Source of the DNA: Bdellovibrionales bacterium
Lineage (GTDB): Bacteria > Bdellovibrionota > Bdellovibrionia > Bdellovibrionales > UBA1609
Direction of reading: 5' to 3'
NCBI GenBank assembly: GCA_965243065.1
Contig: CBDETO010000005.1
Span: forward strand, 1,883,520 to 1,947,519
Length of the DNA: 64,000 nt
Position 1 is the first letter of the stretch. Every line of letters starts with the position of its first letter. Under the pieces are notes generated by a model, which saw only the letters and a program-made list of their open reading frames with translations, was not told the DNA's origin and did not search any database. The position numbers and the translations under genes were made by a program. Below are positions 20,807 through 59,406 of this stretch, piece after piece.

Positions 20807-20862
20807 AGAGTCAGTGGATTATATTTATTAAAAGGGAAGGGCTGGCCTGTGGATGTGGTACT

Positions 20863-20911
20863 TTACTGAGGCTTCATTAAGCCTTTGGATTTATAAAAGT
20901 ATGTTAAAAAA
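20863..20911 (+). repeat. 49-bp direct repeat, left copy (TTACTGAGGCTTCATTAAGCCTTTGGATTTATAAAAGTATGTTAAAAAA)
   Basis: Identical to 22043-22091. Contains hairpin AGGCTT-CATT-AAGCCT. Confidence 0.9.
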
Positions 20912-20942
20912 CACAAGGAATGAAAAAATCAAAATGATATTT

Positions 20943-35948: not shown

Positions 35949-37060
35949 TGTAAATGTTCACAAATTCGCTGACAAAATTGAGTTTATAAGGGAGCGTTAG
36001 AAAGCTCTAAATAACCCAAGATAAGGAGGCGAGTTATGAGGGATAACACACAAGATAAGACCCTATACAGGAACTATATTAGTAAGTGGCAGTATATGAT
36101 AAAAGACTATGAGTTAGTAAAGAGGAAGAAACATCCAAAGTTTCGATTTGTAAGTGATTTTTACAAATTCCATAAAACTAATCGTCAGACTTTTTTAAAA
36201 TACTATCATCGCTATTTAAGTCATCCTACAGAGGGGAGTCTTGTTCCTCGTAAGAGAGGTCCTAGATGGAGGTTAAGAAGGGGGGATAATAATAGCTATA
36301 TTGAGCAGGAGGTGCTAAAACACAGGGAAAATGGTGTTAATAGATACGAGATGTGTCATATACTAAACCCTCTTCTTAAGCAAAGGGGAGAGGTTCCGAT
36401 ATCGGCTAGTACGGTATATCGTATATTCAGGAGGAAGGGGGTAAATAAGTTGAAGCCGAAGATGATAGAGAATAAGCGCAAGATAATAAAGGAGAAGGCG
36501 GGGGAGTTAGGTCACATAGACTGCCATCATTTGGGTAAGGACATGATAGTGAAGTCAGGGGGTAAGAGGTACTATTTGGTGTGTGTTATAGATGATTGCA
36601 CGAGGATAGCTTGGGCTGAAGTGGTGGAGGATATAAAGAGTCTTACGGTGATGTTTTCGTGTTTAAAGATTTTTAATGTATTGAGCAAGAAGTATAAGAT
36701 GGAGTTTAAGGAGGTTATGAGTGATAATGGTTCAGAGTTTTCTTCTCGTAATAATCAGTTATCGCATCCGTTTGAGAGGATGTTGTTGGAGTTGGGGGTA
36801 AGGCATAGATATACAAGGCCGTATAGGCCACAGACGAATGGGAAGGTGGAGAGATTTTGGAGGAGTTTAAATGAGGATTTAATAGAGGGGAGTGTATTTG
36901 AGACGATAGAGGAGTTCAAGGATGAATTGGAGCAGTATTTGATATACTATAATGAGTTTAGACCTCATCAGGGTTTGAATCAGAAAACACCTCGGCAAAT
37001 GAATAACTCTTGTGAAAGAGTGAAGAAGTGATTCTGTCAGCGAATTAGTGAACACGTACA
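35949..37060 (+). mobile_element. IS481-family insertion sequence, copy 2
   Basis: Co-linear with copy 1 (offset 28584). One difference noticed in the right end (gattCtgtcag). Flanked by GGAAT at 35944-35948 and 37061-37065. Confidence 0.85.
36036..37031 (+). CDS. IS481-family DDE transposase (copy 2)
   Basis: Protein identical to 7452-8447. Confidence 0.9.
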   Translation: MRDNTQDKTLYRNYISKWQYMIKDYELVKRKKHPKFRFVSDFYKFHKTNRQTFLKYYHRYLSHPTEGSLVPRKRGPRWRLRRGDNNSYIEQEVLKHRENGVNRYEMCHILNPLLKQRGEVPISASTVYRIFRRKGVNKLKPKMIENKRKIIKEKAGELGHIDCHHLGKDMIVKSGGKRYYLVCVIDDCTRIAWAEVVEDIKSLTVMFSCLKIFNVLSKKYKMEFKEVMSDNGSEFSSRNNQLSHPFERMLLELGVRHRYTRPYRPQTNGKVERFWRSLNEDLIEGSVFETIEEFKDELEQYLIYYNEFRPHQGLNQKTPRQMNNSCERVKK

Positions 37061-40185: not shown

Positions 40186-40213
40186 AGTAGCATCTATATA
40201 AATCGGCAAACTG

Positions 40214-40580
40214 TTTTCCTGAAGTTCGCCAAATAAAACCCTTTGGGTTTAAAAGAGTGGTAAATTTATCATAGTTTTCCTGAAGTTCGCCAAATAAAAC
40301 CCTTTGGGTTAATGATGAACCTTTCGGAAGAGAATAGGATTTAAAAGGCTCGGACATGCGGTTTGCCACAAATTTGTCATTCCCGCGAAAGCGGGAATCT
40401 AGTTGCTCATGTGTCAAATCCGAACTCGCTTTTAAGCCCTATTCTCTTCCGAAAGAAGCTTTTTTCTTTATGTGAGAGATTTTACCAAAGTTTATCAAAT
40501 AAAACCCTTTGGGTTTAAAAGAGTGGTAAATTTATCATAGTTTTCCTGAAGTTCGCCAAATAAAACCCTTTGGGTTTAAA
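40214..40580. repeat. 61-bp tandem repeat (TTTTCCTGAAGTTCGCCAAATAAAACCCTTTGGGTTTAAAAGAGTGGTAAATTTATCATAG), ~1.6 + ~1.6 copies split by a 183-bp insert containing a MITE-like element
   Basis: Units at 40214, 40275 (truncated at 40310) and 40494-40580. Each has hairpin AAACCC-TTT-GGGTTT. Confidence 0.75.
40321..40455. mobile_element. MITE-like element M1 (135 bp) with perfect 18-bp terminal inverted repeats CTTTCGGAAGAGAATAGG
   Basis: TIRs at 40321-40338 and 40438-40455. The core contains CATGCGGTTTGCCACA, a REP hairpin ATTCCCGCGAAAGCGGGAAT and TCCGAACTCGCTTTT. Confidence 0.65.
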
Positions 40581-40639
40581 TCTGGTATGGATTTTGCATA
40601 GCTTATTTTTAAAAAACTATGATACTATAAAGAAAGGAG

Positions 40640-41314
40640 ATGAAGATGAGTAAATCCATAATATCACCAGCAGATGAGATTTGGGCACTTATAAAAGAGA
40701 CTCAAAGAAATTTAGAGCGGTTTTCGGCAGAAGCAGAGAAGCGGCAAGCAGAAGCAGAGAAGCAAAGGGCAGAGGAAAAGAAGCAAAGGGCAGAAGAAAA
40801 GAAGCAGCAGGCTAAGCGATGGGCTGAAGCAGAGAAACGTAGTGCTGAAATAGATCGGCAGATACAAAAAATAGGGGGCCGGTTTAATGAACGATGGGGA
40901 GCTTTAGTGGAGTCTTTAGTTGAGGGAAAGCTGGTAAAGATTTTTCAAGGTCATGGGATAGATATAACACAAACTCATACTCGTTCTAAATCAGAGTGGA
41001 GAAAACCGGATGGTCGTATTGAAAGACGGGAGTTTGATATTATTGTGGCTAATGGAACAGAGGTTGTGGTTGTAGAAGTAAAAACCACTTTAGTTCCCAA
41101 AGATGTCACTGTTTTTTTAGAAACCCTTAGGGATTTTAGAAATTACTTTCGAAGATATAAGACGGAAACGATCTACGGGGCGGTAGCCTATCTAGCCAGT
41201 GAGAGTAGGGCGCATTTGCTTGCGGAGGAAGAGGGTTTATTTCTTATCCGAGCTACAGGGGACAGTGCCAGTCTGGTTAATAGAAAAGACTTTAAACCCA
41301 AAGCTTTTAGCTGA
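40640..41314 (+). CDS. Coiled-coil + PD-(D/E)XK nuclease-fold protein
   Basis: N-terminal AEAEKRQAEAEKQRAEEKKQRAEEKK repeats. C-terminal EFDIIVANGTEVVVVEVKTTL fits the D...E-x-K motif. Confidence 0.55.
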   Translation: MKMSKSIISPADEIWALIKETQRNLERFSAEAEKRQAEAEKQRAEEKKQRAEEKKQQAKRWAEAEKRSAEIDRQIQKIGGRFNERWGALVESLVEGKLVKIFQGHGIDITQTHTRSKSEWRKPDGRIERREFDIIVANGTEVVVVEVKTTLVPKDVTVFLETLRDFRNYFRRYKTETIYGAVAYLASESRAHLLAEEEGLFLIRATGDSASLVNRKDFKPKAFS

Positions 41315-41456
41315 AGAATCATTTTTCAGTGTGGAGCTAATCTCCATAGATCTGTCATTCCCGTGAAGCTTGAACTTTGTCATGCCCACGCAAGCCCTGT
41401 CATTCCCGCGCAAGCCCTGTCATTCCCGCGAAAGCGGGAATCTCATTGCTCTTGCT

Positions 41457-41571
41457 CTTCAGTAGAGAATAGAGAGCAAAAAACTCAAACATGCGGTTTG
41501 CCACAGTAGCAACCTTTGGTTGCTCTGTGCTCAAATCCGAACTCGCTTTTGCTCTCTATTCTCTCCTGAAG
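41457..41571. mobile_element. MITE-like element M2 (115 bp), 25-bp TIR (1 mismatch)
   Basis: CTTCAGTAGAGAATAGAGAGCAAAA ... TTTTGCTCTCTATTCTCTCCTGAAG. Same conserved core ends as M1, but with inner hairpin AGCAACC-TTTG-GGTTGCT. Confidence 0.65.
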
Positions 41572-41622
41572 AGTCTATCTCTATCCTGCTTTGTATGTCA
41601 TCCTCATAGCTAACGGGAAGCC

Positions 41623-41652
41623 ATTTTGTCAGTGAATTAGTGAACATTTACA
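41623..41652. mobile_element. Orphan terminal inverted repeat of the IS481-family element
   Basis: ATTTTGTCAGTGAATTAGTGAACATTTACA vs IS right end ATTTTGTCAGCGAATTAGTGAACACGTACA (27/30). No transposase adjacent. Confidence 0.6.
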
Positions 41653-41749
41653 ATCGTGAAGTTTGAACTTTGTCATGCCCTCGGAAGCGGGCATCTCATT
41701 GGCTACGAGGAATAATGATCTATAAGTAAATACATCCTTCAAGAAAACA

Positions 41750-41839
41750 GCTTTGCTTCTATACGAGGCTTTGCTTCTATACGAGGCTTTGCTTCTATAC
41801 GAGGCTTTGCTTCTATACGAGGCTTTGCCTCCTATTCTC
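41750..41839. repeat. 18-bp tandem repeat GCTTTGCTTCTATACGAG x4 + 1 degenerate
   Basis: Read directly. ORFs 41629-41841 and 41753-42019 are repeat artefacts. Confidence 0.85.
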
Positions 41840-42334
41840 AATATTTGTTTGTTTCAATTTGATACAAATAAGAATCCTTTTATTGAGGAAGATTTATTTT
41901 TATTTACCTTTCTAGAATTTCTATTTTCATTAAAGATTAAAAGAACTTACTTATATATCTTGTTTTTAAAAATGAGGGTAGCTCAGCCTATTGAGCTTCA
42001 TAAACTAAATATGGACTAAATATTTTATTTGTTAATTAATTTTTTTATGATAGCCTTAATTATAAGGTCATGCTTTTAAGGGTTTTCTTGTTTTAATGAT
42101 GATGGGCTTTTGTGTATCTTTTTGGAGGCCAAGGACACTTTTCAGTGGAAAAGAGGAGTCAAAAAATTTAGATTGCTATAGATCTGTCATTTCTGCGGAA
42201 GATTGTCATTCCCGCGAAAGCGGGAATCCAGATCTGCTAAACTGAAAGCCCCTAGCTTATTCATCTCAAAAAATGGGAAAAATTTTTATAAAATAGAGTT
42301 GACAAGGATGTTTAAAATATGAATATTGTTTTTA

Positions 42335-42446
42335 ACATACATACATACATACATACATACATACATACATACATACATACATACATACATACATACATAC
42401 ATACATACATACATACATACATACATACATACATACATACATACAT
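42335..42446. repeat. Tetranucleotide microsatellite (ACAT)28
   Basis: 112 bp, perfect. ORFs 42286-42486 and 42319-42963 (YIHT / MYVC repeats) are artefacts. Confidence 0.95.
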
Positions 42447-42489
42447 AAAGTATATTCATTTCTTCTTCTCCCGTTTTTTTCAACATGTC

Positions 42490-42637
42490 CTTTTCAAGAG
42501 AAAAGAAGAGTCAAAAACTCAGACATGCGTTTTGCCACAAATATGTCATTCCCGCGAAAGCGGGAATCTAGTTGCTCTTGTGCTCAAGCTTGTCCTCGTG
42601 AAAACGGGGATCCGACTCGCTTTTTCCTCTTATTCTC
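42490..42637. mobile_element. MITE-like element M3 (148 bp)
   Basis: CTTTTCAAGAGAAAAGAAGAGTCAAAAACTCAGACATGCGTTTTGCCACA ... TCCGACTCGCTTTTTCCTCTTATTCTCTTCTGAAAAG. Carries two inner hairpins. Confidence 0.6.
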
Positions 42638-43123
42638 TTCTGAAAAGATGTTGTTTTCTATATACGATCGTCAGGCAGAGTACTGTGGCTTTATACCGAA
42701 CGGGTATAGCTGTGGAAACCTATCTTTTCAACAGAGTTGATATAGTGAAGAAGCTCTGTTTCCATTTTTTATGTCATTTCACAAAACAAATTATACCGGT
42801 TCGGTACGGGATTCCTGTTCTTTGTTTTTACGAGGACAAGCTTCACGGGAAGGACAAACATTTACAGGAATATTGTCATTTCTACAAAGTATGTCATGCC
42901 CGCGGAAGCGGGCATCTCATAAGCTACGGCTTTGTCACCTCCGCGAAAGCGAGGGTCTTATAGCTACGAGGAATAATGATCTATGAGTAAAAATATGTTC
43001 TTCAGGAAAACAGTGTTACCTTTCTGGATTCCCGCTTTCGCGGGAATGACAGTGCTTTCGCGGGAATATTGTCACCCCCGTGAAAACGGGGGTCTTGTTC
43101 ATTTACTGGATTCCCGCTTTCGC

Positions 43124-43178
43124 GGGAATGACAGTGCTTTTACAGGAATGACAGTGCTTTTACGGGAATGACAGTGCT
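43124..43178. repeat. ~20-bp tandem repeat GGGAATGACAGTGCTTTTAC x~3
   Basis: Read directly. Second array at 43374-43447. Confidence 0.75.
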
Positions 43179-43204
43179 GGCGCAGGCAATGATAGATGGA
43201 TAAG

Positions 43205-43344
43205 CTTTTCAGGAGAGAAGTAGGGGGCAAAAGCGAGTTCGGATCCCCGCTTTCGCGGGGACAAGCTTGATACAGAGCAACCGAAGGTTGCTTCTGTGGC
43301 AAAACGCATGTCTGAGCCTTTTGACTCCTACTTCTCTCCTGAAG
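43205..43344. mobile_element. MITE-like element M4 (140 bp), inverted orientation relative to M1-M3
   Basis: Its rc reads CTTCAGGAGAGAAGTAGGAGTCAAAAGGCTCAGACATGCGTTTTGCCACA...TCCGAACTCGCTTTTGCCCCCTACTTCTCTCCTGAAAAG. Confidence 0.6.
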
Positions 43345-43373
43345 AACAAGAGCGACTGGATTCCCGCTTTCGC

Positions 43374-43447
43374 GGGAATGACAATGCTTTTACGGGAATG
43401 ACAGTGCTTTTACGGGAATGACAATGCTTTTACGGGAATGACAGGGG
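43374..43447. repeat. 20-bp tandem repeat GGGAATGACA(A/G)TGCTTTTAC x3.5
   Basis: Read directly. Confidence 0.8.
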
Positions 43448-43644
43448 AAGAGGGAAGGAATGCAATTAAACAGGAAGTAATTTAGTTAAGGGATGTAAGT
43501 AATAAATTAACTAAAAAAGGGTATTAAACTGATCGTGTTTGAAAATTTCAGATTTAGAAGCTTGGTTAACAAGGGGAAAAAATCCTGAAAGGTACGAAAA
43601 AATAATACCCTTTGGGTATTAAACAAAACCAAGGAGGATGTTAA

Positions 43645-45405
43645 GTGTCTATATACAAGAATGTAAGAAAGTTTTTGGTCAAAGTATTTAGTAAAAACAA
43701 AGAAGGATCAGCGGCCATTATTTTATCTTTGATGGTTTCGGCAGGGGTGCTCAGCACCATTTACTTTACTCAAAAAATGACAGGGGGTTTTTTATCTGAG
43801 CATTCACAGTCTATAGAGGAATGGGAAAAGCATTTGGTAACGGAGTCGGCTCAAACCCTGGCAGCTTACCTGGTGGCCAATAATCTTATTCTTTGTCGTC
43901 AAGATGGTTGGACGGGCAAGCAATCTAATTGTAAGTGGACTCTGGCCCCTAAGACAGAGAGTCCTGCTGATTTTCATTTATCGGATGAAGGGGACTCAGC
44001 AGAGGGGCTATCCTATAAAGGTAAATACACTTTGGATGATGTGGAGAAGGAATATAAAGTGACTTTTCAGTTGGTGGATTGGCGGAGCACCTCTATAGAG
44101 AATTTGATTGGTGATGTGCCGGAGGCGGTTTGCAGAGATAAGAACACTTTGGAAGTGATTAGTGATGCGTCTTGTTTAAAGTATGAGGATTCTACTGACC
44201 CGATTAATCAGGTTTGTCAGGTGAGCGGCAGTGATGACAGTGATACACTCTGTGAATATATAAAACCGGTAGATGGGGACTATTGGATTGTTTTAACAAA
44301 AGTGGAGGTGGATTATAAAGACCCTGTCTCCAAGGCGGATTTAAAACATGTAGCTTTGTCAGGGATAAGGCGTCCTTTAAGTTCTATTAAATTCGGTATG
44401 ATTGTTTCTGGAAGGAAGTGCTCTTTAAGTTGTCCAGGGGGTGTGCAGGCCAATTCGTTCACTCAGTGTCGAGGTTCGTTCCTACCTACAGAGGCAGGAG
44501 AATATACAGGTACAGCCTCTAATATAGTATCTATAAAAAACGAAGGGCCAGGAGCCATCTACTCTCTTTCTTTATTGAGGGAGTCTGTTGGGTTGACGGG
44601 AATTCAAGATTCTTACGAGGAAGATGTGACATCGGATATAGTTAAAGAAGCCAAATCCACAGAGCAGGTGTTTTTGCCTAATGAAACCATAACATTTGAG
44701 TATTTTTATGATTGCCCTGTAGAAGTAAGAAGATCCATTGTATATAAGACCGGGGACCAGGATCGTGTGGAGGTAACAAGTACCACTAAAGATGTTCCTT
44801 TTGAGCAGTTTTCATACTCGCTTAGTTTTGATGCCGATGATCCAGCGGGAGTTTGTTACAAAACTGAGGCATCCCCTGATTTGCCAGACAAAACGCACGA
44901 AGATGTCGATTTTGTAACTATGAGCAGTCCGCGTTTGGCTTCGGCTTCTTGTACTTTAGGGGACACGGCTTGTAGTGCAGGAGGAAGTACCGGAAGCTGT
45001 AAGTTTGCAGGTTTAGAGCCAGCCAGAACATTTATAATTCCTTTAGAAGTGACTGCCCAACATTTAGGTCTTGTTAAAGAAATTGTGACTACGATTACAA
45101 AAAAAGAAGTACCGATGATTATTACTAACGTTACAGATGGTGGAAGTTGTTGTAGTGGTTGTAGCGGCAACCCACACAACGGTAGCTTCAGAGACAGATG
45201 CGATGGTAGAAATGGCCCCGGCTACAGCGGCGGCGGAAGTAGCGGCGGCGGAAGTAGCGGCGGCGGAAGTAGCGGCGGCGGAAGTAGCGGCGGCGGAAGT
45301 AGCGGCGGCGGAAGTAGCGGCGGCGGAAGTAGCGGCGGCGGAAGTAGCGGCGGCGGAAGTAGCGGCGGCGGAAGTAGCGGCGGCGGCTATGGAGGACCAT
45401 GGTGA
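43645..45405 (+). CDS. Large Cys-rich exported protein (586 aa) with TadG-like hydrophobic N-terminus and C-terminal (SGGGS)10 repeat
   Basis: GTG start with AAGGAGG RBS. N-terminus KNKEGSAAIILSLMVSAGVLSTIYF resembles the TadE/TadG-like N-terminal segment. Many Cys. No enzymatic motif recognised. Confidence 0.6.
   Translation: MSIYKNVRKFLVKVFSKNKEGSAAIILSLMVSAGVLSTIYFTQKMTGGFLSEHSQSIEEWEKHLVTESAQTLAAYLVANNLILCRQDGWTGKQSNCKWTLAPKTESPADFHLSDEGDSAEGLSYKGKYTLDDVEKEYKVTFQLVDWRSTSIENLIGDVPEAVCRDKNTLEVISDASCLKYEDSTDPINQVCQVSGSDDSDTLCEYIKPVDGDYWIVLTKVEVDYKDPVSKADLKHVALSGIRRPLSSIKFGMIVSGRKCSLSCPGGVQANSFTQCRGSFLPTEAGEYTGTASNIVSIKNEGPGAIYSLSLLRESVGLTGIQDSYEEDVTSDIVKEAKSTEQVFLPNETITFEYFYDCPVEVRRSIVYKTGDQDRVEVTSTTKDVPFEQFSYSLSFDADDPAGVCYKTEASPDLPDKTHEDVDFVTMSSPRLASASCTLGDTACSAGGSTGSCKFAGLEPARTFIIPLEVTAQHLGLVKEIVTTITKKEVPMIITNVTDGGSCCSGCSGNPHNGSFRDRCDGRNGPGYSGGGSSGGGSSGGGSSGGGSSGGGSSGGGSSGGGSSGGGSSGGGSSGGGSSGGGYGGPW
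45226..45387 (+). repeat. Perfect 15-bp tandem repeat AGCGGCGGCGGAAGT x10 (+12 nt), in-frame (SGGGS)n
   Basis: Read directly. Other-frame ORFs 45137-45430 and 45188-45424 are shadows. Confidence 0.95.
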
Positions 45406-45429
45406 TTCTGGAGGGAGTCCTCATAGGTA

Positions 45430-48400
45430 ATGAATAACCTTTTAGAAGAACTGTTATTAGTTAGTATATTAGGAGATATTTTTTGTAAGTTTAAAGTGAG
45501 AGGTACTTTGAAAAAAAGAACAAAAAATCAAGATATGCCAATCCGGTATAGAAAGAAGGAGGATCTTCAAAACTTCTCATTTCCTTTTGGAAAAAACAAA
45601 GAGACGATTGGAAAAATCAAACTTTGGTATAACAATTTAAGTGGAATATTTTTTATAAACAATAAAGGTTCCTTCGTAGTCTCCCAACTTGTGGCGGCAT
45701 TTATAATGGGCATTAGTGGAGTGGCCTTGGTGGCCTATATGCAGGGGCAGTCCAGACAAACCCATGAAGTTGAGCAAGAGCAGGACTTATCTTTTAATAT
45801 TCACTCCAATATTATATCCGATCTACGTGCCCTATTGGTAGAGGCCAATATAGATAACACCGGGGAGAAGCAAGCCCAGAGTAAAGAAGGTGTATGTTCT
45901 TTTTTAGAGCCACCCACTAAAATGGCAGGTGTAGAGTTAATCCAATTCAACATAGGCTCTAATTTAAGTGCGGAGGCTAGGGCCAGTTTTTCAGAAAGCC
46001 GTTGGGAGGCTTTTTTTGACAAGAGTGAGTATGAGCTGTCTTCCGATGATACACCTTGTGAGGCTATGGATCCTGATTTTACGGATAGTCTGTTTAGCCG
46101 CTGTTTTAAGTATATAGGTAAGCAAAATGAGACGGCCAATGAGGTTTATGTGATAGCCCGTATTATACCGAAGAAATTTCCAGAGCAAACCGATATTGAT
46201 TTAAGCCAGTCTAACACCTTAGATGCGAAGGCAGTGCTATTTGAGCTTCAGTCCTTGGTATCTGTTTTTAAGGGGGATGATTATGATGAGAAGGGACTTT
46301 ATGTGAGCAAGCAATATAGCCTGATATGGGCTAATGCGGTGTCGGAATGTCATGCTGAGTCTGCCAATAGTGCCAGGACAGTGGCTGTTCAGTTTTCCGG
46401 TTCGGGCACGGGTAGGTTAAGCCGTAAGACTATAATCAATACTCCAGAGTATGATGCATCAGCATGTAGTGAGTTGGAGTTTCAAGATATCACCCCTGAG
46501 ATGCGTATGTCTCATAGTATTGATAGTGACGGCAATGTGGGTGTGGATTCTATACGGGCACGGACAGCCTGTAGAAGAAATGTGTTTCGCTGTAAGGGAG
46601 AGAGCAGTGATAGTTCGAAAGATTATGAGCCTGTGATTTTTACAATGGGGCTTTCTAATGATAGTGGAGGGCCTTTTGATCTTAAGAAGGTAGGACTTAC
46701 TTTTAAGGATGAAAGCAATGTGGAAGTGGCCTCGGGTAGTCCGGGAAAACTCACCGTAGAGGTATATAACGAGGTTTGGGATTTTGATGCTAATAAAGTT
46801 TTTAAAAAAAACCATCCCGCGGCCATTCTTAATCCCGGTCACGCTGTTTATAAATTTACTTTAAAAGATAAAAGCGATGGGGATAACTCTTTAAAAGGTT
46901 TTTGTGATGATGTTTGTGATTCAGGGAAAAAGATATTCCCTTTCGTTACAATGGACTTATATAAAGCCCCTGGGGCCACCTGTACCTCTTATTCCAGCGA
47001 ATATGAGAAGGAGGAGAAAAACCGTTTTCGCTGTATCGTATGCCATTCTAAAATATGCACTAAAATAGGAATGGGCACTTTTGGTACTATTGAAGATGAG
47101 CTAGATAAAGATGGTAATCTACTGGTGCAGGGTTTGGTGGATGAGCCTTTGGATGGGACTTTGCCGGAATGCGCTTTACCTAAAAATAACAGTGGAGGTA
47201 AGTATGATTTACCGGACTTTAAAAGTAGTAGCTCTGTGGGTGGTTCTGGGGACTGTATAGCGATAAAGCTTCCTAATTTAGAATCTTTTAAAAGTTTTGA
47301 TAGCGCTCAGTATGAGTTTAAAAACTGTAGTAATTCGCTTCCTATTTTATGTTTTGCCAGCGGGCACTATGTACCGGCTGTAGATCTTTCTTCTCCTACT
47401 TCTAAGCCTGCTATATTCACCGGAAGTTTTAATAAAGCTCAAGAAGCTTGTTATAAAATGGGTAGGGAAATAGTCAAGAAAACGGACTTAGCAGGTTTTT
47501 TTATGTATTTTTGGCTTACTATTTCTGGCGATGTTGACTCTGTTGCAGGGGGTTTAGGACTTCCCTCTTTTTCAGATGCCAATTACTTTGATTATGTTAA
47601 TAATGCTACTCGTGGAATATTTATAGCTCCTTCTTATAAAATAGAAGAACTATCAAATTTTTTAAAAGAGGGTGAGGGTTATTTAAAAAAATTTACAGAT
47701 GGGGGACACACCTCTGCCTGGGTGGCCATGAGAAAAGACGGAGGAGGCCAGGTCATAGGCTCCATTCCCTGGGCAAAGGTGGCTGACTCCAAAGTGGCGA
47801 TTTTCAGAAGGAAGGCACTTTTATCCACTGATCCACCTACTAGACCTAGCCCTATCTTACTAAAAAACACCTACTCGGTTCCCTCTTCCGACACAGACAC
47901 TATCTTAACTCACAATATTCAATACAAAGGGGTTTATAATTTACCAGGTGGCAGTGGTATCACAGGAAAAGCCCTTTGCCGAAAAGGCCCTGGAGATTTT
48001 GTTTTAAGCAGCAGTGCTGTTCGTGTACAACAAGCTCCTGGAGCTTGTACTGCAAAGGGAGCTAAATTCCTTCCTCCTTTAAGCTCTTTGGAGTGGGCTA
48101 AGGCCATGACCCTTATAAATCCCAATGATGAGTCTTATCCTTTTCCTGACCCGGGTGATTTATCATCAGGTACAAACCATATTTTTTCTATAAATATTCC
48201 GGCAACAGGGGCTTGGGTGGCCTTAAGCAAGTCAACAGGAAAGGATGGTAAAAATACAGAGAACTGGCGATTAAGTGACGCTTATTTTCCAGATGCAAAG
48301 TCTCTTTTTAATGCGGACAATGTAGATGAGCCTATGCCAGATAAAGGTTCCGACTATATCGGTGTAGTGGATTATGAAGGGACCCCTGTTGTGCCGACCA

Positions 48401-49014
48401 ATTTAACCATAAGTAATGTCCGTGATCGTAGTTTTATTAACACTTATAAGAAGATCTGTTATGAGGCGCATGATAATGATCAGGTCAGCCTTAAGCCCCC
48501 GGCAGGGGTGAATGGTGCTTGTGGAAGTGGAGTAGATGCGACAGATGAGGGATTTATAGATGAGAAGCGTAAGAGTGTGAAGTTTATGACGGAGTGGGTG
48601 GAGGAGCACACCTCTGGGGAGTTTGTGATAAACATGCAGGCAATAGATGAGTTACAGCAGCGAGCAGAGCATTTATACTGTGAGAAAGTGGGAGATGGGG
48701 AGTGTAGAGCTTGTGAGGCAGATTGTGATGCAAAGGCGGCCCAATGTGTAGATGCCTGTCCTGAGGATTGTTGTACCACGAGCAACAGTTGCACAGTGCC
48801 AGGTGACCTTAGCAGTTGCACATCCACAACAACCTGTTCTAAGTGTCCGGCCTGTTTGCAAGCCTGTGAAAATGAGAAGATTCGGTGTAAGAATGAGTGT
48901 CGTACATGTGGTGGCACGGTTTATCCGAGTTGTGATGATGAGGGTTTTTGTGAATGTAAGTGGCCTTTTGAAGCTTGGACCCCTTCTGTGTTACCAGATG
49001 GGGCTCCTTTATAA
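45430..49014 (+). CDS. Very large Cys-rich exported/surface protein (up to 1194 aa); true start uncertain (45430 or 45535)
   Basis: Hydrophobic segment FVVSQLVAAFIMGISGVALVAYM about 85 aa from the first ATG. Cysteines throughout. C-terminal ~130 aa is a dense Cys knot (CRACEADCDAKAAQCVDACPEDCC...CSKCPACLQACENEKIRCKNECRTCGG). 24 nt after the preceding ORF. Confidence 0.6.
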   Translation: MNNLLEELLLVSILGDIFCKFKVRGTLKKRTKNQDMPIRYRKKEDLQNFSFPFGKNKETIGKIKLWYNNLSGIFFINNKGSFVVSQLVAAFIMGISGVALVAYMQGQSRQTHEVEQEQDLSFNIHSNIISDLRALLVEANIDNTGEKQAQSKEGVCSFLEPPTKMAGVELIQFNIGSNLSAEARASFSESRWEAFFDKSEYELSSDDTPCEAMDPDFTDSLFSRCFKYIGKQNETANEVYVIARIIPKKFPEQTDIDLSQSNTLDAKAVLFELQSLVSVFKGDDYDEKGLYVSKQYSLIWANAVSECHAESANSARTVAVQFSGSGTGRLSRKTIINTPEYDASACSELEFQDITPEMRMSHSIDSDGNVGVDSIRARTACRRNVFRCKGESSDSSKDYEPVIFTMGLSNDSGGPFDLKKVGLTFKDESNVEVASGSPGKLTVEVYNEVWDFDANKVFKKNHPAAILNPGHAVYKFTLKDKSDGDNSLKGFCDDVCDSGKKIFPFVTMDLYKAPGATCTSYSSEYEKEEKNRFRCIVCHSKICTKIGMGTFGTIEDELDKDGNLLVQGLVDEPLDGTLPECALPKNNSGGKYDLPDFKSSSSVGGSGDCIAIKLPNLESFKSFDSAQYEFKNCSNSLPILCFASGHYVPAVDLSSPTSKPAIFTGSFNKAQEACYKMGREIVKKTDLAGFFMYFWLTISGDVDSVAGGLGLPSFSDANYFDYVNNATRGIFIAPSYKIEELSNFLKEGEGYLKKFTDGGHTSAWVAMRKDGGGQVIGSIPWAKVADSKVAIFRRKALLSTDPPTRPSPILLKNTYSVPSSDTDTILTHNIQYKGVYNLPGGSGITGKALCRKGPGDFVLSSSAVRVQQAPGACTAKGAKFLPPLSSLEWAKAMTLINPNDESYPFPDPGDLSSGTNHIFSINIPATGAWVALSKSTGKDGKNTENWRLSDAYFPDAKSLFNADNVDEPMPDKGSDYIGVVDYEGTPVVPTNLTISNVRDRSFINTYKKICYEAHDNDQVSLKPPAGVNGACGSGVDATDEGFIDEKRKSVKFMTEWVEEHTSGEFVINMQAIDELQQRAEHLYCEKVGDGECRACEADCDAKAAQCVDACPEDCCTTSNSCTVPGDLSSCTSTTTCSKCPACLQACENEKIRCKNECRTCGGTVYPSCDDEGFCECKWPFEAWTPSVLPDGAPL

Positions 49015-49147
49015 AGTGTGAGTCTTTTATTTTGGAAAAACATTTCGAAGATGAATAAATCAGAGAGGGAATTTGTCATTCCCGCGAAAGCCCTGTCATT
49101 CCCGCGCAAGCGGGAATCTAGTAAATGAACGAGACCCCCGCTTTCGC

Positions 49148-49265
49148 GGGGGTGACAGAAAAGGCGGGGGTGACAGAAAAGGCGGGGGTGACAGAAAAGG
49201 CGGGGGTGACAGAAAAGGCGGGGGTGACAGAAAAGGCGGGGGTGACAGAAAAGGCGGGGGTGACC
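49148..49265. repeat. 18-bp tandem repeat GGGGGTGACAGAAAAGGC x6.5
   Basis: Read directly. It abuts the stop of the convergent MFS gene. ORFs 49073-49291 and 49125-49589 are artefacts. Confidence 0.9.
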
Positions 49266-52964: not shown

Positions 52965-53969
52965 TTATAAGGTGTCTCTGTTACAATTTACTGTCTTGCA
53001 AAGAGTGTCACATACTGTTTCATTAATTTTTTCATTCCTTGTGAAGTGCGAATCGTAAAAGTCTCCATCTTCGTTTATTTTCCCCCAATGATTCCAAACA
53101 TTAGGGCCATGAACATAGCAATGTAGCGACCTACTAAACCGTTGATCACTGGCATAATGACACTTATTTCGCCTACTCAATTGGTTTTGATATTCCTTTC
53201 GAGAACAATACACTTTTAATTTACAATTTTTGGTTGAGCAAGTATTTTTTAATAAATTATGAAGGGCAATAAAGGCAAAGGGGTTGTCTTCATTGCTGGC
53301 GATGCTCAAGAAGGTATATCCTGATCCCTCCAGGTTTTCCCCAATTCCATATTCTATAGAACTATTTCCCTGACCCTCTCCTAGTTTTTTAAAACTGGCT
53401 TTTAAAATTTCACTTTCCTTATCGTGGTGCACGATAGCTAAAGCCACTGATTTTGTCTTAGCCACCCAAAACAAAAACTCCCCTACTTCCCGTTGAGACC
53501 AATCCTTTATAAGTTTTATAACCGGGGCCGTGTCAATATCAATCATAACACCAAAATTCCATTCATTTACTTCTCGGTCTAGATAATCTTCTCTGGCCTT
53601 AATATGGGTCATTTCTGAGAACAGCTGATCTAACTTAGATATGAGATCTATGGGTAGTTTTTCGCATTTACTCGATTCATTTCTATATACTTTTTCACAC
53701 TGATCTGTGCATTCTTTGTACTCTTCGCTTTTTTCGTCATCTTTCCTAAGATCTTTACAATAAGGACCTGTATAGTCGGAGAAAATAAAGCGACCATAGT
53801 AATCATCATCAGTCATGGATCGAATAGGTGAACCTTCTTTATCGCTGATGCGCTCACGAGCCGCGCGTTCTCTTGCTGTCTCTTCTGGGTTATTACAATA
53901 AAGTAGTAAGACAGAAACCAGCAGTAAAACCAATAATATTTTTATGTGTTTTAAAATCTGGATAACCAT
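52965..53969 (-). CDS. Cys-motif lipoprotein/secreted protein, paralog family member P1
   Basis: Signal/lipobox LLLYC. YCKD...CTDQCEKV...KCEKLPIDLISKL...REVGEFLFWVAK. Shared architecture with 54011-54952 and 58312-59406. Confidence 0.6.
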   Translation of the reverse strand: MVIQILKHIKILLVLLLVSVLLLYCNNPEETARERAARERISDKEGSPIRSMTDDDYYGRFIFSDYTGPYCKDLRKDDEKSEEYKECTDQCEKVYRNESSKCEKLPIDLISKLDQLFSEMTHIKAREDYLDREVNEWNFGVMIDIDTAPVIKLIKDWSQREVGEFLFWVAKTKSVALAIVHHDKESEILKASFKKLGEGQGNSSIEYGIGENLEGSGYTFLSIASNEDNPFAFIALHNLLKNTCSTKNCKLKVYCSRKEYQNQLSRRNKCHYASDQRFSRSLHCYVHGPNVWNHWGKINEDGDFYDSHFTRNEKINETVCDTLCKTVNCNRDTL

Positions 53970-54010: not shown

Positions 54011-54952
54011 TTATTCACAACCTTTATTATCATCTTTACAAACAAAACCACAGACATCGTTATTCATGATGGGGTCTATTAAAATGGTCCCTAAACCCCC
54101 TGTGCGTAATATTTCTTTTTGTATATGATTAAAAAAGTCTTCATCTTTTATGTTTCTAGCTATTTCATTTCTTAAGTCTTCCGAGTGGATATAGTTATCA
54201 TCTTGTTGTTCTTTACAATAAATTCTTAGTATGCAAGTTTCTATGTGACGAGTTCCTACATAAGAAAAAGAGCAAAGGTCTGTTTTAATCATTTCATGGG
54301 TCATCTGTAGTAAGTCATAATTAGAGTGGAAAACAATAAGCTGAAAGAAGCTTTCGTCAAAAGAGATTTTTTTAGCAAGACCTTCTTCTACAGCAAAACC
54401 CGTATCTCCTTGCGGTCCACCATATCGGCTACGATCTCCCACAGAAGCTAACATTTCATAGATCATTTCATTTCTAACTGGTTCTTTAAATAGAAGCAGC
54501 TCATTTACAGGTGCTTTGTTTGTGGTGAACCATATTATAAGCTCTCTTGCTTCATCTATCGTATAAGCTTGAATGATTCTAACTAGAACCTTATAGTCCA
54601 AAGCTAACAGAAGACGAAATTCCTTTTGGGGATTAATAAATTCTAAAGACCGGAGAACGGGATTTTCCAGTAAGGGTATTAAATCTTCTAAATCAGCAAT
54701 AGTATCTTTGGGCAAAGAACGACATTGTTTCCTGACTTTCTCATTTGATTTATGGAAAATACGGTTACAAATTTGTTTGCACTCTCTATGTTCTGAACAA
54801 CAGTTATCCCCCCTGCAAAAAGAAGCCAAGGGTTTTCCGGCACGTACTCCATCTGCGATATCTTCGGTATCGCCCACTCCATTAATAGGAGGAGGGGAGC
54901 ATTGAGTGAAAAATAAAAAAGATATAACACAGGTAAAAAGCCATAATCTCAT
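54011..54952 (-). CDS. Cys-motif lipoprotein, paralog P2
   Basis: ATG 54952 preceded by AGGAG (track start 54970 is GTG). Lipobox FFTQC. FCRGDNCCSEHRECKQICNRI...QCRSLPKDTIADL...EARELIIWFTT. Confidence 0.6.
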   Translation of the reverse strand: MRLWLFTCVISFLFFTQCSPPPINGVGDTEDIADGVRAGKPLASFCRGDNCCSEHRECKQICNRIFHKSNEKVRKQCRSLPKDTIADLEDLIPLLENPVLRSLEFINPQKEFRLLLALDYKVLVRIIQAYTIDEARELIIWFTTNKAPVNELLLFKEPVRNEMIYEMLASVGDRSRYGGPQGDTGFAVEEGLAKKISFDESFFQLIVFHSNYDLLQMTHEMIKTDLCSFSYVGTRHIETCILRIYCKEQQDDNYIHSEDLRNEIARNIKDEDFFNHIQKEILRTGGLGTILIDPIMNNDVCGFVCKDDNKGCE

Positions 54953-55342
54953 AGTAAGTCTCCTAACCACTTTAGAAAAGTTTATTTTATTTTTTCATAG
55001 CCTTTAAAAACAGTCAAATATAAGTCTCTAGTTTTTTCGTTAGATTTTAAAGAGTATCTATCTGCTGCTGCCTGTTTCGCTTGTTTTTTACAGCCTTTAA
55101 TCCAGTAGAGATAAGGTGTTTCTTCTTTTTTATCGTAGGACATTATAAGGACCGGGGATTAAGAATTGGGTGTTGGGGAGCAAGGATCAAACCATAAAAG
55201 TATAAGTGAAAATTTTTCACTCTTTATATATATTGTCAGGCAGTATTGCCTGCGCACAAGTGGGGGTAGAGGGATTTCGTCCCCCGGAGCAAGCTTTACG
55301 AAAATGACAGTTCACCTACCCTCACTAGTGGGAACGGGGATT

Positions 55343-58100: not shown

Positions 58101-58311
58101 TATAGGAGATCACCGCTTTACTGCCATTTATCCTTATAGGTAGAATTTCAATACCTACATCAATAGTAACCAAACATTACCTGAGCTTTGTATTTTTCAA
58201 AAATAGGAGAGTTTAAAACTCCAAAAATGGAGTTTAATAGCTTGTAAAATAGAAAATTTGAACTTATACTTGATCGGATTGAACATATATCCGTTTGCTG
58301 AGGAAGATAAA

Positions 58312-59406
58312 ATGTGGAAATTAATATTATCTATTTTAATAGGTTTTGTTCTCCTATTAAGTTGTCATCAACACAATACAGATGGTCCTCCCGAAGGAAC
58401 TCCTGTTGGGTCTGATGAGGGCCAGATAGAAGGACCCACATTAAATGAGGGGGATAATCCGCTTTTTACTTCTTTTACTCTTCCAACCTGTTCAGAAAAT
58501 GATTGTTGTTATAAAAACACAGATTGTTTTTCACAGTGTGAGAGTCTATTTCCTTTAGGGGAGGATAAAAAAAGATGTTTAAAATTACCTATAGAGTGGG
58601 TAGATAAAATGCAGGAAACTGTAGATAGTAATTTAAAAGATCCAAAATGGGATCATCTAGTATATATGGAGTTATCTGTCTTTTGGTCTATATTAGCTAT
58701 TTCTGAAAAGCCCTGGTTAGATAAAATAAGTGATTATAATAATAGAGAAGCGCGCCAGGTCTTGTACTGGCTAGCCTCCCAACCAGATATAAATGAGAAA
58801 GTTTTAAGTCATCTGCCAGGTCATCGGATACGATCACTGTTTTTGGCTTTATTTAGAAAAAACACCCGCTCTACATTGTTGGATGATAACGCTTTACTTT
58901 CTAGCCTGAAAGAACCCATAGAAGAAGATCAAAATACTTTTTTTGAAATAGCTGATAAGGTTAATAATAGTCTTATATCTATAGTGCATGAGCAGATTGT
59001 GGCTAAACATCTTTGTGATTATTCTATCAATCATCCCCGGCCTGTCCATTATATCAGTGATAGCCGTTATCAGGCTTGTGTGTTAGCTGTTTATTGTTAC
59101 ATTACAGGGGTTTATACAGAGGATTCGTATATGGTCACCAAAGAAAATGGTCGAAACGGACAAGTGTTGAGGGAGCGTCTGGCTAATGAATGGGAGGAAG
59201 ATAGTAAAGAAATAACTGATTTTATCGAGGCCCCCAACGATAAAGGAGGACTGGGAATTATGGATAATGCGGATGATTGGCCTGATGCAGCTTGTGTAAA
59301 ACTGAAGCAACTATGGGATGATGGGAACCTCAAATTTGGATTGCAGCAAAGGGAAAGGCCCTCTTGGTGGTTTCCTGAGTTTGAAGACGCGTATTATTGG
59401 GAATAG
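58312..59406 (+). CDS. Cys-motif lipoprotein, paralog P3
   Basis: ATG 58312 with GAGGAAG RBS (track start 58258 is TTG). Lipobox LLLSC. TCSENDCCYKNTDCFSQCESL...RCLKLPIEWVDKM...REARQVLYWLAS. Confidence 0.6.
   Translation: MWKLILSILIGFVLLLSCHQHNTDGPPEGTPVGSDEGQIEGPTLNEGDNPLFTSFTLPTCSENDCCYKNTDCFSQCESLFPLGEDKKRCLKLPIEWVDKMQETVDSNLKDPKWDHLVYMELSVFWSILAISEKPWLDKISDYNNREARQVLYWLASQPDINEKVLSHLPGHRIRSLFLALFRKNTRSTLLDDNALLSSLKEPIEEDQNTFFEIADKVNNSLISIVHEQIVAKHLCDYSINHPRPVHYISDSRYQACVLAVYCYITGVYTEDSYMVTKENGRNGQVLRERLANEWEEDSKEITDFIEAPNDKGGLGIMDNADDWPDAACVKLKQLWDDGNLKFGLQQRERPSWWFPEFEDAYYWE

Follow-up and report, generated by a model that had tools for sequence, protein, structure and literature searches.

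Gene Pair and Its Surroundings

Two consecutive genes, ORF1 and ORF2, were found intact on the + strand of the analyzed stretch of 64,000 nucleotides (the window), at 43645-45405 and 45430-49014. Their predicted lengths (586 and up to 1194 amino acids) and the 24-nt spacer agreed with the first-pass annotation of this DNA. The features of the locus are listed below.

40186-43644, no strand: upstream repeat field with about 10 REP-like palindromes (TGTCATTCCCGCGAAAGCGGGAATC) in both orientations and 20-bp tandem units
40640-41314: plausible 224-aa ORF inside the upstream field
41750-41828: 18-bp x 4.4 array of the upstream field
42335-42447: ACAT x 28 of the upstream field
43631-43637, +: Shine-Dalgarno sequence AAGGAGG, 7 nt 5' of the ORF1 GTG, as read from the sequence
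43645-45405, +: ORF1, 586 aa, GTG start; basic leader, G21-S22, near-invariant helix without Glu5, Cys-containing all-beta ectodomain, low-complexity tail
43705-43773, +: ORF1 aa 21-43, G-S junction and hydrophobic helix (GSAAIILSLMVSAGVLSTIYFTQ); putative E5-less class III signal and alpha1N segment
43807-45129, +: ORF1 ectodomain, aa ~55-495; beta-sandwich domains preceded by helix 57-78; 14 conserved Cys
45226-45386, +: perfect 15-bp x 10.7 tandem repeat coding for (SGGGS)n of the ORF1 C-terminal tail
45430-49014, +: ORF2, type IV pilin-like, giant and degenerate; start at ATG 45430 (1194 aa) or ATG 45535 (1159 aa)
45664-45840, +: K79-G80/S81 junction (slash, junction) and long N-terminal helix of ORF2, aa 81-137; G80 aligned with the -1 Gly of canonical prepilin relatives
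46405-46842, +: hypervariable cassette of ORF2, aa 326-471; 31-59% identity among four in-genome paralogs, flanking blocks 90-100%
47473-47553, +: another, short variable block of ORF2 (aa 682-708), in which the paralogs are 43% identical
48679-48957, +: C-terminal Cys-rich module of ORF2, aa 1084-1176; 20 Cys, C-x2/3-C ... C-x3-C units, predicted mostly helical
49074-49264, no strand: downstream boundary; 2 REP-like units (49074-49111), then a perfect 18-bp x 6.6 tandem array (49146-49264)

The pair is bracketed by repeats. A pattern search for the REP-like palindrome returned 13 copies in the window against 0.07 expected; 12 of them flank the two genes (40.3-43.4 kb and 49.07-49.11 kb), and the remaining copy lies at 20208. 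The arm 49140-49157 is complementary to the first downstream REP unit. The downstream 18-bp array and REP units reported earlier were thus recovered, as were the ~3.4 kb of repeats upstream, but the upstream field also holds the 224-aa ORF, which had no match in Pfam. Genes for type IV filament machinery were not found within the 64-kb window.

Each protein contains a single N-terminal hydrophobic or transmembrane segment (ORF1, aa 21-43; ORF2, aa 80-106). The two N-terminal stretches that the first-pass annotation had quoted are both present. The cysteine richness it had pointed out was likewise evident: 18 Cys in ORF1 (3.1%) and 43 in ORF2 (3.6%), compared with 0-2% in most other ORFs of the window. 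A small Cys-rich ORF, also mentioned there as secreted, is present at 21743-22033 and is lipoprotein-like. When ORF1 and ORF2 were compared with Pfam, NCBIfam, and PDB sequences, neither gave a family or motif match, nor was N_methyl or TIGR02532 matched at E <= 1, in keeping with the earlier statement that no enzymatic motif could be recognized.

ORF2 and a Family of Giant Type IV Pilin-like Proteins

The candidate start of ORF2 at ATG 45430 has GGAGGGAG 12 nt upstream, and the in-frame alternative at ATG 45535 corresponds to the start position of paralog P0004. The length of 1194 residues is an upper bound; none of the homologs shows conservation of the residues that precede the K-G-S motif. 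An exhaustive profile search placed ORF2 in a family of 168 clusters with proteins of 0.9-1.8 kaa, which is apparently centred on the Bdellovibrionota and apparently has not been described until now. A canonical prepilin signal (G/FxxxE, scored as G-[FMLIVY]-[STG]-x-x-E no more than ~25 residues from the start) was present in 60 of 142 full-length members, and intermediate signals such as RG/FTIVG and G/VSMVQ also occur. Among 44 members scanned, N_methyl (PF07963) matched 24 (best E, 6e-7), TIGR02532 matched 14, and PilV matched 9 (best, 2e-8); the ComGE, GspI, GspH, and GspJ models also matched some of these proteins. A search of PDB sequences with the family profile yielded nine matches, all of them type IV pilins aligned over the leader and alpha1 (best, 3e-5). 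BLASTP aligned ORF2 with WP_374077923.1 of cultured Bdellovibrio bacteriovorus over ~880 columns from the K-G junction onward (E, 6e-36).

At the level of sequence, the homology of ORF2 to type IV pilins is solid. It is confined to the N-terminal module, whereas the body of ~900 aa resembles no protein described so far. The search for homology to a characterized adhesin family, which the first-pass annotation had named as a possible refutation, retrieved only this N-terminal pilin relationship. As judged from the profile matches, the family belongs to the N_methyl/PilV/GspI class and not to the Tad class; TadE (PF07811) and TadG/Tad_N (PF13400) had no match in ORF1, ORF2, or 44 relatives. The PilY1 beta-propeller (PF05567) was not matched by ORF2 or 50 relatives.

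ORF2 had been described as carrying a pilin-like helix without the canonical G-F-x-x-x-E site. This is correct, and the missing site is explained by divergence of ORF2 within its family, other branches of which have the canonical prepilin signal. Position +1 is Ser in place of Phe and position +5 is Ser in place of Glu (KG/SFVVSQ aligned on KG/FSIIES), and the -1 Gly is at least 90% conserved across the family. The basic leader of 44-79 residues is much longer than a usual class III signal. Fourteen Cys residues are invariant across the ORF2 family; together with the lone N-terminal transmembrane segment of each protein, this supports export of ORF1 and ORF2. The Cys-rich C-terminal end with CxxC and Cx3C spacings was also confirmed; it is restricted to the close clade and is missing from two related loci, L001 and L003.

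The AlphaFold2 model of ORF2, with an overall pLDDT of only 59.6, showed a lone 57-residue N-terminal helix (model residues 46-102) and, after it, a beta domain whose pLDDT was ~80. The hypervariable cassette coincides in part with a stretch of low pLDDT. Foldseek searches with the full-length models of ORF1 and ORF2 did not retrieve any pilin or minor pilin, and no relative of either protein was found among PDB folds.

ORF1 and the Composition of the Cassette

ORF1 was modeled with a core pLDDT above 90. Helix 57-78 and the beta domains were confident and the transmembrane part was of low confidence; Foldseek with this model returned nothing from the PDB at E < 1e-3. Among 40 ORF1 homologs, G21, S22, L27, S32, L36, T38, I39, and Q43 are conserved at 90% or more, and the helix is nearly invariant. 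The leader and junction read E20-G21/S22, then S-A-A-I-I-L, with the Gly at least 90% conserved in the family. The (SGGGS)n tail is private to the copy in the window; the homologs carry other G/D/P-rich tails.

The first-pass annotation had regarded the N terminus of ORF1 as TadE/TadG-like. This assignment was not upheld: neither TadE, Tad_N, PilX_N, nor any other HMM matched ORF1 or its family, and the partner family falls into the N_methyl/PilV/GspI class. Four ORF1-family members, one of them from a canonical locus, had no match in Pfam or NCBIfam at E <= 1, T2SSK (PF03934) and PilX_N (PF14341) included. An hhalign comparison with the ORF2 family placed the ORF1 helix in register with the pilin N terminus, although not significantly (E, 0.044).

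Each of the 11 loci examined (the window, L001-L005, L007, L008, and L012-L014) has an ORF1 homolog directly before the giant gene, and B. bacteriovorus has an ORF1 homolog as well (E, 2e-18). The canonical relatives L007, L008, and L014 contain three genes. The order in these ancestral-type relatives, among them B. bacteriovorus (CP169237.1, ~812-817 kb), is an E5-less ORF1-like protein, a giant canonical pilin, and a canonical pilin of 300-350 residues. Glu5 is missing from the ORF1-like protein in every locus (e.g. RNERG/VALGA, SSRG/VGVLP, and KEG/SAAII). The pilins GspK and PilX also lack Glu5 and are normal tip subunits. We infer that ORF1 is an E5-less pilin-type protein heading a minor-pilin cassette.

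The third pilin gene is missing from all eight loci of the degenerate clade, i.e. the window and seven others. The window clade has thus lost the third pilin, and from its giant pilin Phe1 and Glu5; the long N-terminal helix and the -1 Gly of the giant pilin have been kept. The loss of the third pilin means that the complex may no longer be borne on a filament. In one relative, a gene for a PilT-size ATPase is located 6 kb from the pair. Taken together, ORF1 and ORF2 are probably transcribed together and encode exported proteins, rich in disulfides, that stem from the minor-pilin cassette of a type IV filament.

Paralogous Copies

The small, Bdellovibrio-like genome of 2.08 Mb contains five ORF1-ORF2 pairs, four of them close and one divergent. 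The close pairs are mosaics in which identical blocks alternate with hypervariable blocks. The variable blocks are internal to ORF2 and not C-terminal. A hypervariable repertoire in several copies is more in line with exposure at the surface than with a function in the periplasm.

Proposed Function and Alternatives

A role as a surface fiber or adhesin, which the first-pass annotation had put forward as a candidate, is the best-supported function of the pair. By analogy with the Kil Tips of Myxococcus we favor, with reasonable though not high confidence, a model in which ORF1 and ORF2 are exported as minor-pilin-type tip complexes that serve as an interchangeable adhesin repertoire. The N-terminal helices would place both proteins in the inner membrane, and prepilin peptidase may cut both after the Gly. 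In B. bacteriovorus, which possesses T4aP, Tad, and T2SS, a single PilD is shared by more than one of these systems (preprint 10.64898/2026.07.08.737194). The helices of ORF1 and ORF2 would then bundle into a priming or tip complex of a type IV filament. The bodies of the two proteins, ~900 aa stapled by disulfides in ORF2 and beta-sandwiches in ORF1, could be displayed at its distal end as an adhesive, target-recognizing head. The five paralogous sets, with variable cassettes in constant frames, would provide a set of interchangeable tips suited to different surfaces of prey or host, or to evasion of immunity or phages. The function at the filament tip is deduced, and interchangeable sticky pilus tips that recognize the prey or host cell are the most likely form of it.

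Alternatively, the decayed pilin signal might act as an uncleaved signal-anchor of a re-purposed membrane complex. ORF1 and ORF2 would then be bitopic in the inner membrane, away from any filament, and their disulfide-rich domains would work in the periplasm or arrive at the surface in some other way. We consider both the complex itself and these sites of action rather unlikely. The loss of Phe1 and Glu5 from ORF2, the lack of N_methyl matches to the window proteins, the very long and unconserved ORF2 leader, and the absence of the third pilin from the eight degenerate-clade loci all agree with such a complex. The retention of the -1 Gly at 90% or more across the ORF2 family and in ORF1 argues against it, as does the near-invariant sequence of the ORF1 helix, which is unexpected for a mere anchor. 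Furthermore, lack of Glu5 is compatible with an ordinary tip subunit, as in GspK and PilX, and the hypervariable repertoire favors the exposed surface over the periplasm. A pseudopilus tip of the T2SS (GspK/GspJ-like) that pushes substrates out is improbable. PGAP labels the B. bacteriovorus homolog "type II secretion system protein," and the GspI, GspH, and GspJ models are weakly matched by a few members; however, the label is generic for any prepilin-type N terminus, and the PilV and ComGE matches are stronger and more numerous. No gsp gene adjoins the cassette in any locus examined, and a hypervariable 1000-aa body in five paralogs would have no rationale in a periplasmic piston.

Large proteins, multiple copies, and variable regions in a predatory lineage would also be expected if neighboring cells received the pair as polymorphic, contact-dependent toxins or effectors. 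We regard this as highly improbable: toxin, protease, nuclease, or immunity domains were not detected with Pfam, NCBIfam, or PHROGs, features of T5SS, T6SS, or Rhs/YD proteins were absent, the N terminus is pilin-derived, and the variable blocks do not form C-terminal toxin tips. Equally improbable is a horizontally acquired island or a phage-derived fiber module between repeats. The first-pass annotation had taken the repeats on both sides to suggest an island, and the GC content of the pair is raised, if only slightly (0.41-0.44 versus 0.37-0.42 nearby). The best Foldseek matches of ORF2 were phage tail fibers, but they were non-significant (E > 1e-3, TM <= 0.2), and PHROGs gave no phage signal. 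A further copy of the REP element, at 20208, lies away from the pair. The island interpretation was not supported, as related Bdellovibrionales genomes carry the pair by vertical descent, with chromosomal synteny conserved in part.

A more far-reaching version of the tip-complex model is that, in a small-genome and probably host-associated clade of Bdellovibrionales, a pilus-tip cassette became a recombining, REP-flanked repertoire of giant two-protein heads with a degenerate signal. We put this forward as a speculation that is more likely wrong than right. If true, it would amount to pilE/pilS-style variation acting on tip adhesins. The degenerate signal and the lost third pilin would mark a new mode of assembly, with a two-subunit cap that is either carried by a type IV filament or displayed without one. 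What determines the prey or host specificity of Bdellovibrio-like organisms has long been sought, and this repertoire could then be it.

Comparison with Known Systems

Minor-pilin-type tip complexes as such are known; the giant pilin family and the multi-copy two-gene set would, on the comparison made here, be new. In PilV-PilW-PilX (with PilY1) and GspI-GspJ-GspK, a pilin-like cassette likewise contains one Glu5-less subunit, PilX or GspK there and the ORF1-like protein here. PilX and GspK cap the filament and the known sets form a priming or tip complex, as is proposed for ORF1 and ORF2. The PilV and GspI models match the N terminus of canonical ORF2-family members. The known T4aP and T2SS minor pilins measure 130-330 aa and are single-copy, whereas here five paralogous sets exist. 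PilY1 is not a pilin; the PilY1/PilC adhesins combine a Sec-type signal peptide with the PF05567 beta-propeller, whereas ORF2 has a pilin-type N terminus, lacks PF05567, and has its adhesin-sized body fused to the pilin module itself. PF03934 and PF14341 were unmatched in the present case as well.

Modular or tip-located minor pilins include CofB of enterotoxigenic Escherichia coli, TcpB of Vibrio cholerae, and ComZ of Thermus. In PilB and PilC of Streptococcus sanguinis, one or more adhesive modules are grafted onto a pilin module (PMC8179133, PMC9934059). ORF2 shares this plan of a pilin module followed by extra globular modules, which confer adhesion in the known, low-abundance proteins. 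Those proteins have ~400-550 aa, recognizable modules (vWA, lectin, beta-solenoid), and canonical signals, whereas ORF2 is two to three times larger, contains no recognizable module, and has a degenerate signal.

The tips of the Tad-type Kil pilus of Myxococcus xanthus are trimers of the minor pilins KilL, KilM, and KilN, including a large pilin with a distal domain of unknown fold (Herrou et al. 2025, PMC12075869). They are encoded in four paralogous clusters, have many predicted disulfides, and specify prey range (PMC12075869). The tip predicted there for Bdellovibrio (PMC12075869), Bd0114/0115/0148, is encoded at another locus than the present cassette. Like the Kil Tips, the cassette consists of adjacent minor-pilin genes, one for a large pilin with a distal domain that lacks homologs in the PDB, and occurs in several paralogous clusters per genome of a predatory lineage, with variable exposed domains rich in Cys or predicted disulfides (here from sequence). 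The proposed role, an interchangeable tip for target recognition, is also the same. Sequence homology to the Kil Tips was not detected, however. The Kil Tips are TadE/F/G homologs linked to the Tad/Kil system, whereas the present family matches N_methyl, PilV, GspI, and ComGE. It further differs by the giant subunit of ~1000-1800 aa and, in the window clade, by the degenerate signal, and the window and seven other degenerate-clade loci have two genes instead of three.

The verrucomicrobial "Verru_Chthon cassette" proteins (TIGR02596-02600) also form multi-gene prepilin-type cassettes of unknown function with one very large member. They belong to another phylum, and their likeness to the ORF2 family is limited to the N-terminal motif, over which a few ORF2-family members weakly matched Verru_Chthon cassette proteins B and C (E, 0.02-0.04).

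The ORF1/ORF2 gene pair and its chromosomal setting

The two genes under study lie on the same strand and are surrounded by tandem repeats.

43645-45405, + strand: ORF1, the partner gene (GTG start, 586 aa)
45430-49014, + strand: ORF2, the giant gene (1194 aa maximum)
41750-41828: 18-bp tandem array, 4.4 copies
42335-42447: ACAT tandem array, 28 copies
49146-49264: 18-bp tandem array, 6.6 copies
ORF1 tail: perfect 15-bp array, 10.7 copies, encoding (SGGGS)n

The first-pass annotation had described two adjacent, cysteine-rich ORFs bracketed by repeats, and the positions, the 24-nt gap, the cysteine richness, and the flanking repeats were all recovered. A strong AAGGAGG lies 7 nt 5' of the ORF1 start. 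For ORF2, two starts are candidates: ATG 45430, with GGAGGGAG 12 nt upstream, and the in-frame ATG 45535, the start position of paralog P0004; upstream of its K-G-S motif, ORF2 was not conserved in any homolog. Each protein contains exactly one hydrophobic segment, near the N terminus (aa 21-43 in ORF1 and aa 80-106 in ORF2). The share of cysteine is 3.1% in ORF1 and 3.6% in ORF2, compared with 0-2% in most other ORFs of the window, and aa 1084-1176 of ORF2 alone contain 20 cysteines. Searches of Pfam, NCBIfam, PHROGs, and PDB sequences returned no real match for either protein, the sole PHROG match falling on the Gly/Ser tail of ORF1.

The window contains 13 copies of a REP-like palindrome, TGTCATTCCCGCGAAAGCGGGAATC (0.07 expected), and 12 of them bracket the pair. 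The proposal that the locus forms an island was not upheld, because related genomes share synteny around the pair, GC content is only slightly raised, and a phage signal is absent. The setting is chromosomal, with tuf-secE-nusG-rplKAJL-rpoBC, three tRNAs, type I-E cas genes, and IS copies. No genes for filament machinery were found within the 64-kb window. An Rfam search of 38-52 kb gave nothing, and scans for promoters and terminators told little: 10 promoter-like sites were expected and 8 were seen.

A 224-aa ORF (40640-41314) sits among the upstream repeats. Its sequence includes a coiled-coil-like repeat, AEAEK/QRAEEKK (21-bp tandem repeat, 40748-40806), and its C-terminal part resembles a PD-(D/E)XK nuclease core (DIIVANGTEVVVVEVKTT); it had no Pfam match. 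Three more Cys-rich proteins (52965-53969, 54011-54970, and 58258-59406; 2.9-4.4% Cys), with signal- or lipoprotein-like N termini and likewise no Pfam match, are probably the secreted family called P1-P3 in the first-pass annotation.

ORF2 belongs to a family of giant pilin-like proteins

A word-indexed search of 5.8 billion proteins detected only 21 relatives of ORF2 and 40 of ORF1, none with a precomputed Pfam domain, and a word-indexed profile search added no new members to the ORF2 family. When the ORF2 alignment was used for an exhaustive HMM search of 1.84 billion cluster representatives, 168 clusters emerged, mostly of 900-1200 aa, with some of 1400-1850 aa. A canonical class III (prepilin) signal was present within ~25 residues of the start in 60 of 142 full-length members, for example NKKG|FSLVEVLV, QRG|FSLVEIIM, and APG|FTLVEVAV (the bar follows the -1 Gly). 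Together with intermediates such as RG|FTIVG and G|VSMVQ, the N termini form a graded series; the branch containing the window's ORF2 reads K-G|S-x-x-x-x-L. Among 44 representative members, 24 matched Pfam N_methyl (best 6e-7), 14 matched TIGR02532, and nine matched PilV (best 2e-8), with ComGE, GspI, GspH, or GspJ matching others. ORF2 of the window itself matched none of the pilin models that its relatives match. When the family profile was searched against PDB sequences, all nine matches were type IV pilins aligned on leader and alpha1 (Geobacter PilA at 3e-5 and 7.5e-5, followed by PilA, PilE1, TcpA, and MshA).

One canonical cluster holds a protein of cultured Bdellovibrio bacteriovorus (WP_374077923.1, 959 aa) and one of Bdellovibrio sp. 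HCB-110, both named "type II secretion system protein" by PGAP, a generic name for prepilin-type N termini. BLASTP aligned ORF2 with WP_374077923.1 over ~880 columns (E 6e-36), beginning with NNKG|SFVVSQ on SNKG|FSIIES. Because the alignment starts there, G80 of ORF2 was identified as the former -1 Gly, with Phe1 and Glu5 replaced by Ser. The first-pass view of a pilin-like but non-canonical helix was thus correct: relatives carry the canonical signal, and ORF2 has kept the -1 Gly and lost Phe1 and Glu5. As a statement of homology, ORF2 almost certainly descends from prepilin-type proteins. The family as a whole shares 14 invariant cysteines, an argument for an oxidising, extracytoplasmic location.

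The AlphaFold2 model of ORF2 was modest (mean pLDDT 59.6) and placed a single 57-residue N-terminal helix ahead of a beta domain, a predicted arrangement that fits a pilin alpha1. The ORF1 core was modeled confidently (residues ~55-495 mostly at pLDDT >90, pTM 0.69), with a helix at 57-78 followed by beta-sandwich domains. In Foldseek, neither model had a PDB match at E < 1e-3, nor did ORF1 in BFVD; the top, non-significant matches (phage fibres, generic beta-sandwiches) had TM <= 0.2. The bodies of ORF1 and ORF2 comprise ~1400 residues of confidently conserved sequence without known fold relatives. By eye, aa ~665-790 and ~865-950 of ORF2 had seemed C-type-lectin/DUF1566-like; this candidate assignment was dropped, as none of the 44 members gave a lectin-family vote and the family profile matched no PDB lectin.

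The pair is obligate, and canonical cassettes contain a third pilin

All five reference-genome loci encoding relatives belong to "Bdellovibrionales bacterium" MAGs, all small (1.3-1.8 Mb); a metagenome scan yielded five further loci, of which two were informative (L007 and L008). Related MAGs include OZ241911, OZ250145, OZ251448, OZ245336, and CBDBBW01. The giant gene has an ORF1 homolog immediately next to it, in the same orientation, in every locus examined (the window, L001-L005, L007, L008, L012, L013, and the B. bacteriovorus locus L014). Thus, ORF1 and ORF2 form an obligate pair and not a chance juxtaposition.

The canonical-motif loci L007, L008, and L014 encode three pilin-type proteins per cassette: an ORF1-like protein of 381-438 aa that never has Glu5 (RNERG|VALGA, SSRG|VGVLP), the giant canonical pilin, and a canonical pilin of 300-346 aa (CEKG|FSLSEVLV, KANG|FTLIEVMV; N_methyl 3e-5). 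The B. bacteriovorus trio occupies 8655-13890 of L014, and in CP169237.1 the cassette spans ~812.0-817.3 kb. In minor-pilin cassettes of the PilV/W/X or GspI/J/K type, a subunit lacking Glu5 caps the filament, and the ORF1-like protein, the giant, and the third pilin follow the same logic. HMMs for PilX, GspK, and TadG did not match ORF1 relatives, so that the label "TadE/TadG-like" previously given to ORF1 lacks HMM support. In an hhalign comparison of the ORF1 and ORF2 families, the N termini were in register, but the match was not significant. None of the eight loci in the degenerate KG|S clade has the third pilin; its loss thus correlates with that of Phe1 and Glu5 in the giant subunit.

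Genes flanking the cassettes are mostly housekeeping and variable. Recurring neighbours of the cassette are a pentapeptide-repeat gene and a gene pair, one gene for an uncharacterised 406-aa protein and the other for a PQQ-like beta-propeller protein.

L012 4878-7986: pentapeptide-repeat/406-aa/propeller linkage
L013 5236-8322: same linkage
L014 15766-18060, - strand: same linkage
L001 7037-8210: same linkage

In B. bacteriovorus, a single 764-aa gene combines the 406-aa and propeller genes; L001 retains no more than remnants of them. The propeller could be either BamB-like housekeeping synteny or a PilY1-like accessory. In L014, an FHA-GGDEF diguanylate cyclase gene (1213-2148), which we take to be DgcB-like, lies ~7 kb upstream of the cassette, with a PilZ-domain gene another 7 kb along. 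Predation requires DgcB; the proximity of these genes to the cassette may be coincidental. Directly 3' of the three-pilin cassette in the divergent metagenomic loci L007 (14008-15813) and L008 (5384-7186) is a di-haem CCP/MauG gene (CCP_MauG, E 1e-30), absent beside the window pair. It brings to mind TfcP, a cytochrome c whose gene lies in a minor-pilin/PilY1 cluster of Myxococcus (PMC8833165). One relative encodes a PilT-size ATPase 6 kb from the pair.

One genome holds five pairs, and the four close ones are mosaics

In the window's genome (2,076,434 bp), ORF2 is present in four copies with 83-100% identity, and ORF1 in four close copies. The fifth ORF1 paralog, P0051, is divergent; after it, an ORF2-type gene begins (locus L006). 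Hence the genome holds five pairs, roughly 1% of its DNA. Mean pairwise identity among the four close copies of each gene was profiled along the sequence. In ORF2, it was high at aa 86-325 (78-100%, mostly >90%), aa 562-681 (89-94%), and aa 818-1176 (80-100%, mostly >92%). The two low stretches were aa 326-471, mostly at 31-59%, and aa 682-708, at 43%. The main variable cassette is also the least confidently modeled stretch of ORF2. ORF1 copies were identical at aa 31-150, mostly ~50% identical at aa 240-475, and lower still in the tail. Such a mosaic, read from sequence, would be typical of exposed, diversifying recognition surfaces set in a recombination-homogenised frame.

Immediately upstream of the fifth pair, L006 12-2114 encodes a 700-aa fibre-like protein with phage tail-spike/virion-structural repeats (PHROG down to 3e-24) and a C-terminal tail-fibre-chaperone-like region followed by a coiled coil; it is reminiscent of Bdellovibrio fibre adhesins.

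A candidate filament-tip adhesin

These results invoked the idea that the pair acts at the tip of a type IV filament. ORF1 and ORF2 would each be inserted in the inner membrane by the N-terminal helix and possibly be cut after Gly by a prepilin peptidase. Their helices would bundle into a priming or tip complex, the large disulfide-stapled bodies would form a distal head binding the prey or host surface, and the five sets would serve as interchangeable tips. B. bacteriovorus uses a single PilD for its T4aP and its Tad pilins alike (preprint 10.64898/2026.07.08.737194). Among precedents, the Kil pilus of Myxococcus comes closest: its minor pilins KilL/M/N make up "Tips" that include a large subunit whose fold is unknown; the Tips occur in four paralogous clusters, with many predicted disulfides and prey-specific function (PMC12075869). 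The Kil system is Tad-class and has no HMM relation to the ORF2 family, and its predicted Bdellovibrio counterpart (Bd0114/0115/0148) is another locus than the present cassette.

Under the main alternative, in the window's clade, where Phe1, Glu5, and the third pilin are gone, the signal would have decayed to a plain membrane anchor, and the complex would no longer ride on a filament. The -1 Gly has been retained there, and we consider this course rather improbable. The filament-tip adhesin is the reading we favor, with reasonable though by no means full confidence, and the adhesin or fibre idea of the first-pass annotation stands.

Minor-pilin tip complexes, modular pilins, and interchangeable tips are already known kinds. 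In the databases and literature searched, four features appear to be new: a family of ~170 clusters in which pilin modules are fused to 900-1700-aa bodies of no recognisable domain or fold, an obligate ORF1-type partner family, class III signal decay correlated with third-pilin loss, and expansion to five sets, of which four are close mosaics, within a genome of 2 Mb. According to the 2026 Tad preprint (10.64898/2026.07.08.737194), the machinery for first prey contact is unknown, with T4aP and T2SS as candidates; the giant pilin family may bear on what determines the choice of cell by Bdellovibrio-like predators or symbionts at attachment. As the giant and its partner also occur in the tractable model B. 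bacteriovorus, the interchangeable-tip hypothesis is directly testable, and the canonical-to-degenerate series is useful for asking about the roles of Phe1, Glu5, and the third minor pilin.

Other features of the window

Type I-E CRISPR-Cas genes are notable for a 2 Mb Bdellovibrionales genome.

672-1217, - strand: Cse2
1302-2792, - strand: Cse1
2897-5524, - strand: Cas3, HD and helicase domains

Two 331-aa ORFs (7452-8447 and 36036-37031) start with the same N-terminal residues, and rve integrase-core domains are present in the first; from these traits, they were assigned to two IS copies, one on either side of the ribosomal/rpoBC region and ~28 kb from each other. An 877-aa protein with an NB-ARC/STAND NTPase domain (E 1.5e-13), a possible defence or signalling NTPase, is encoded at 9302-11935 (- strand), flanked by an IS copy and a gene for a ClpP-like SDH protease (12603-13595). 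Three extra ORFs separate the presumed rplJ (20276-20806), near which a REP unit lies at 20208, from rplL (22166-22546), genes that are normally adjacent. Two of them, 20853-21518 and 21508-21777, overlap, jointly carry a zinc-metalloprotease-like HELGHVIGIAH motif, and are possibly one frameshifted gene; the third, 21743-22033, is the 96-aa Cys-rich lipoprotein-like ORF listed in the first-pass annotation.
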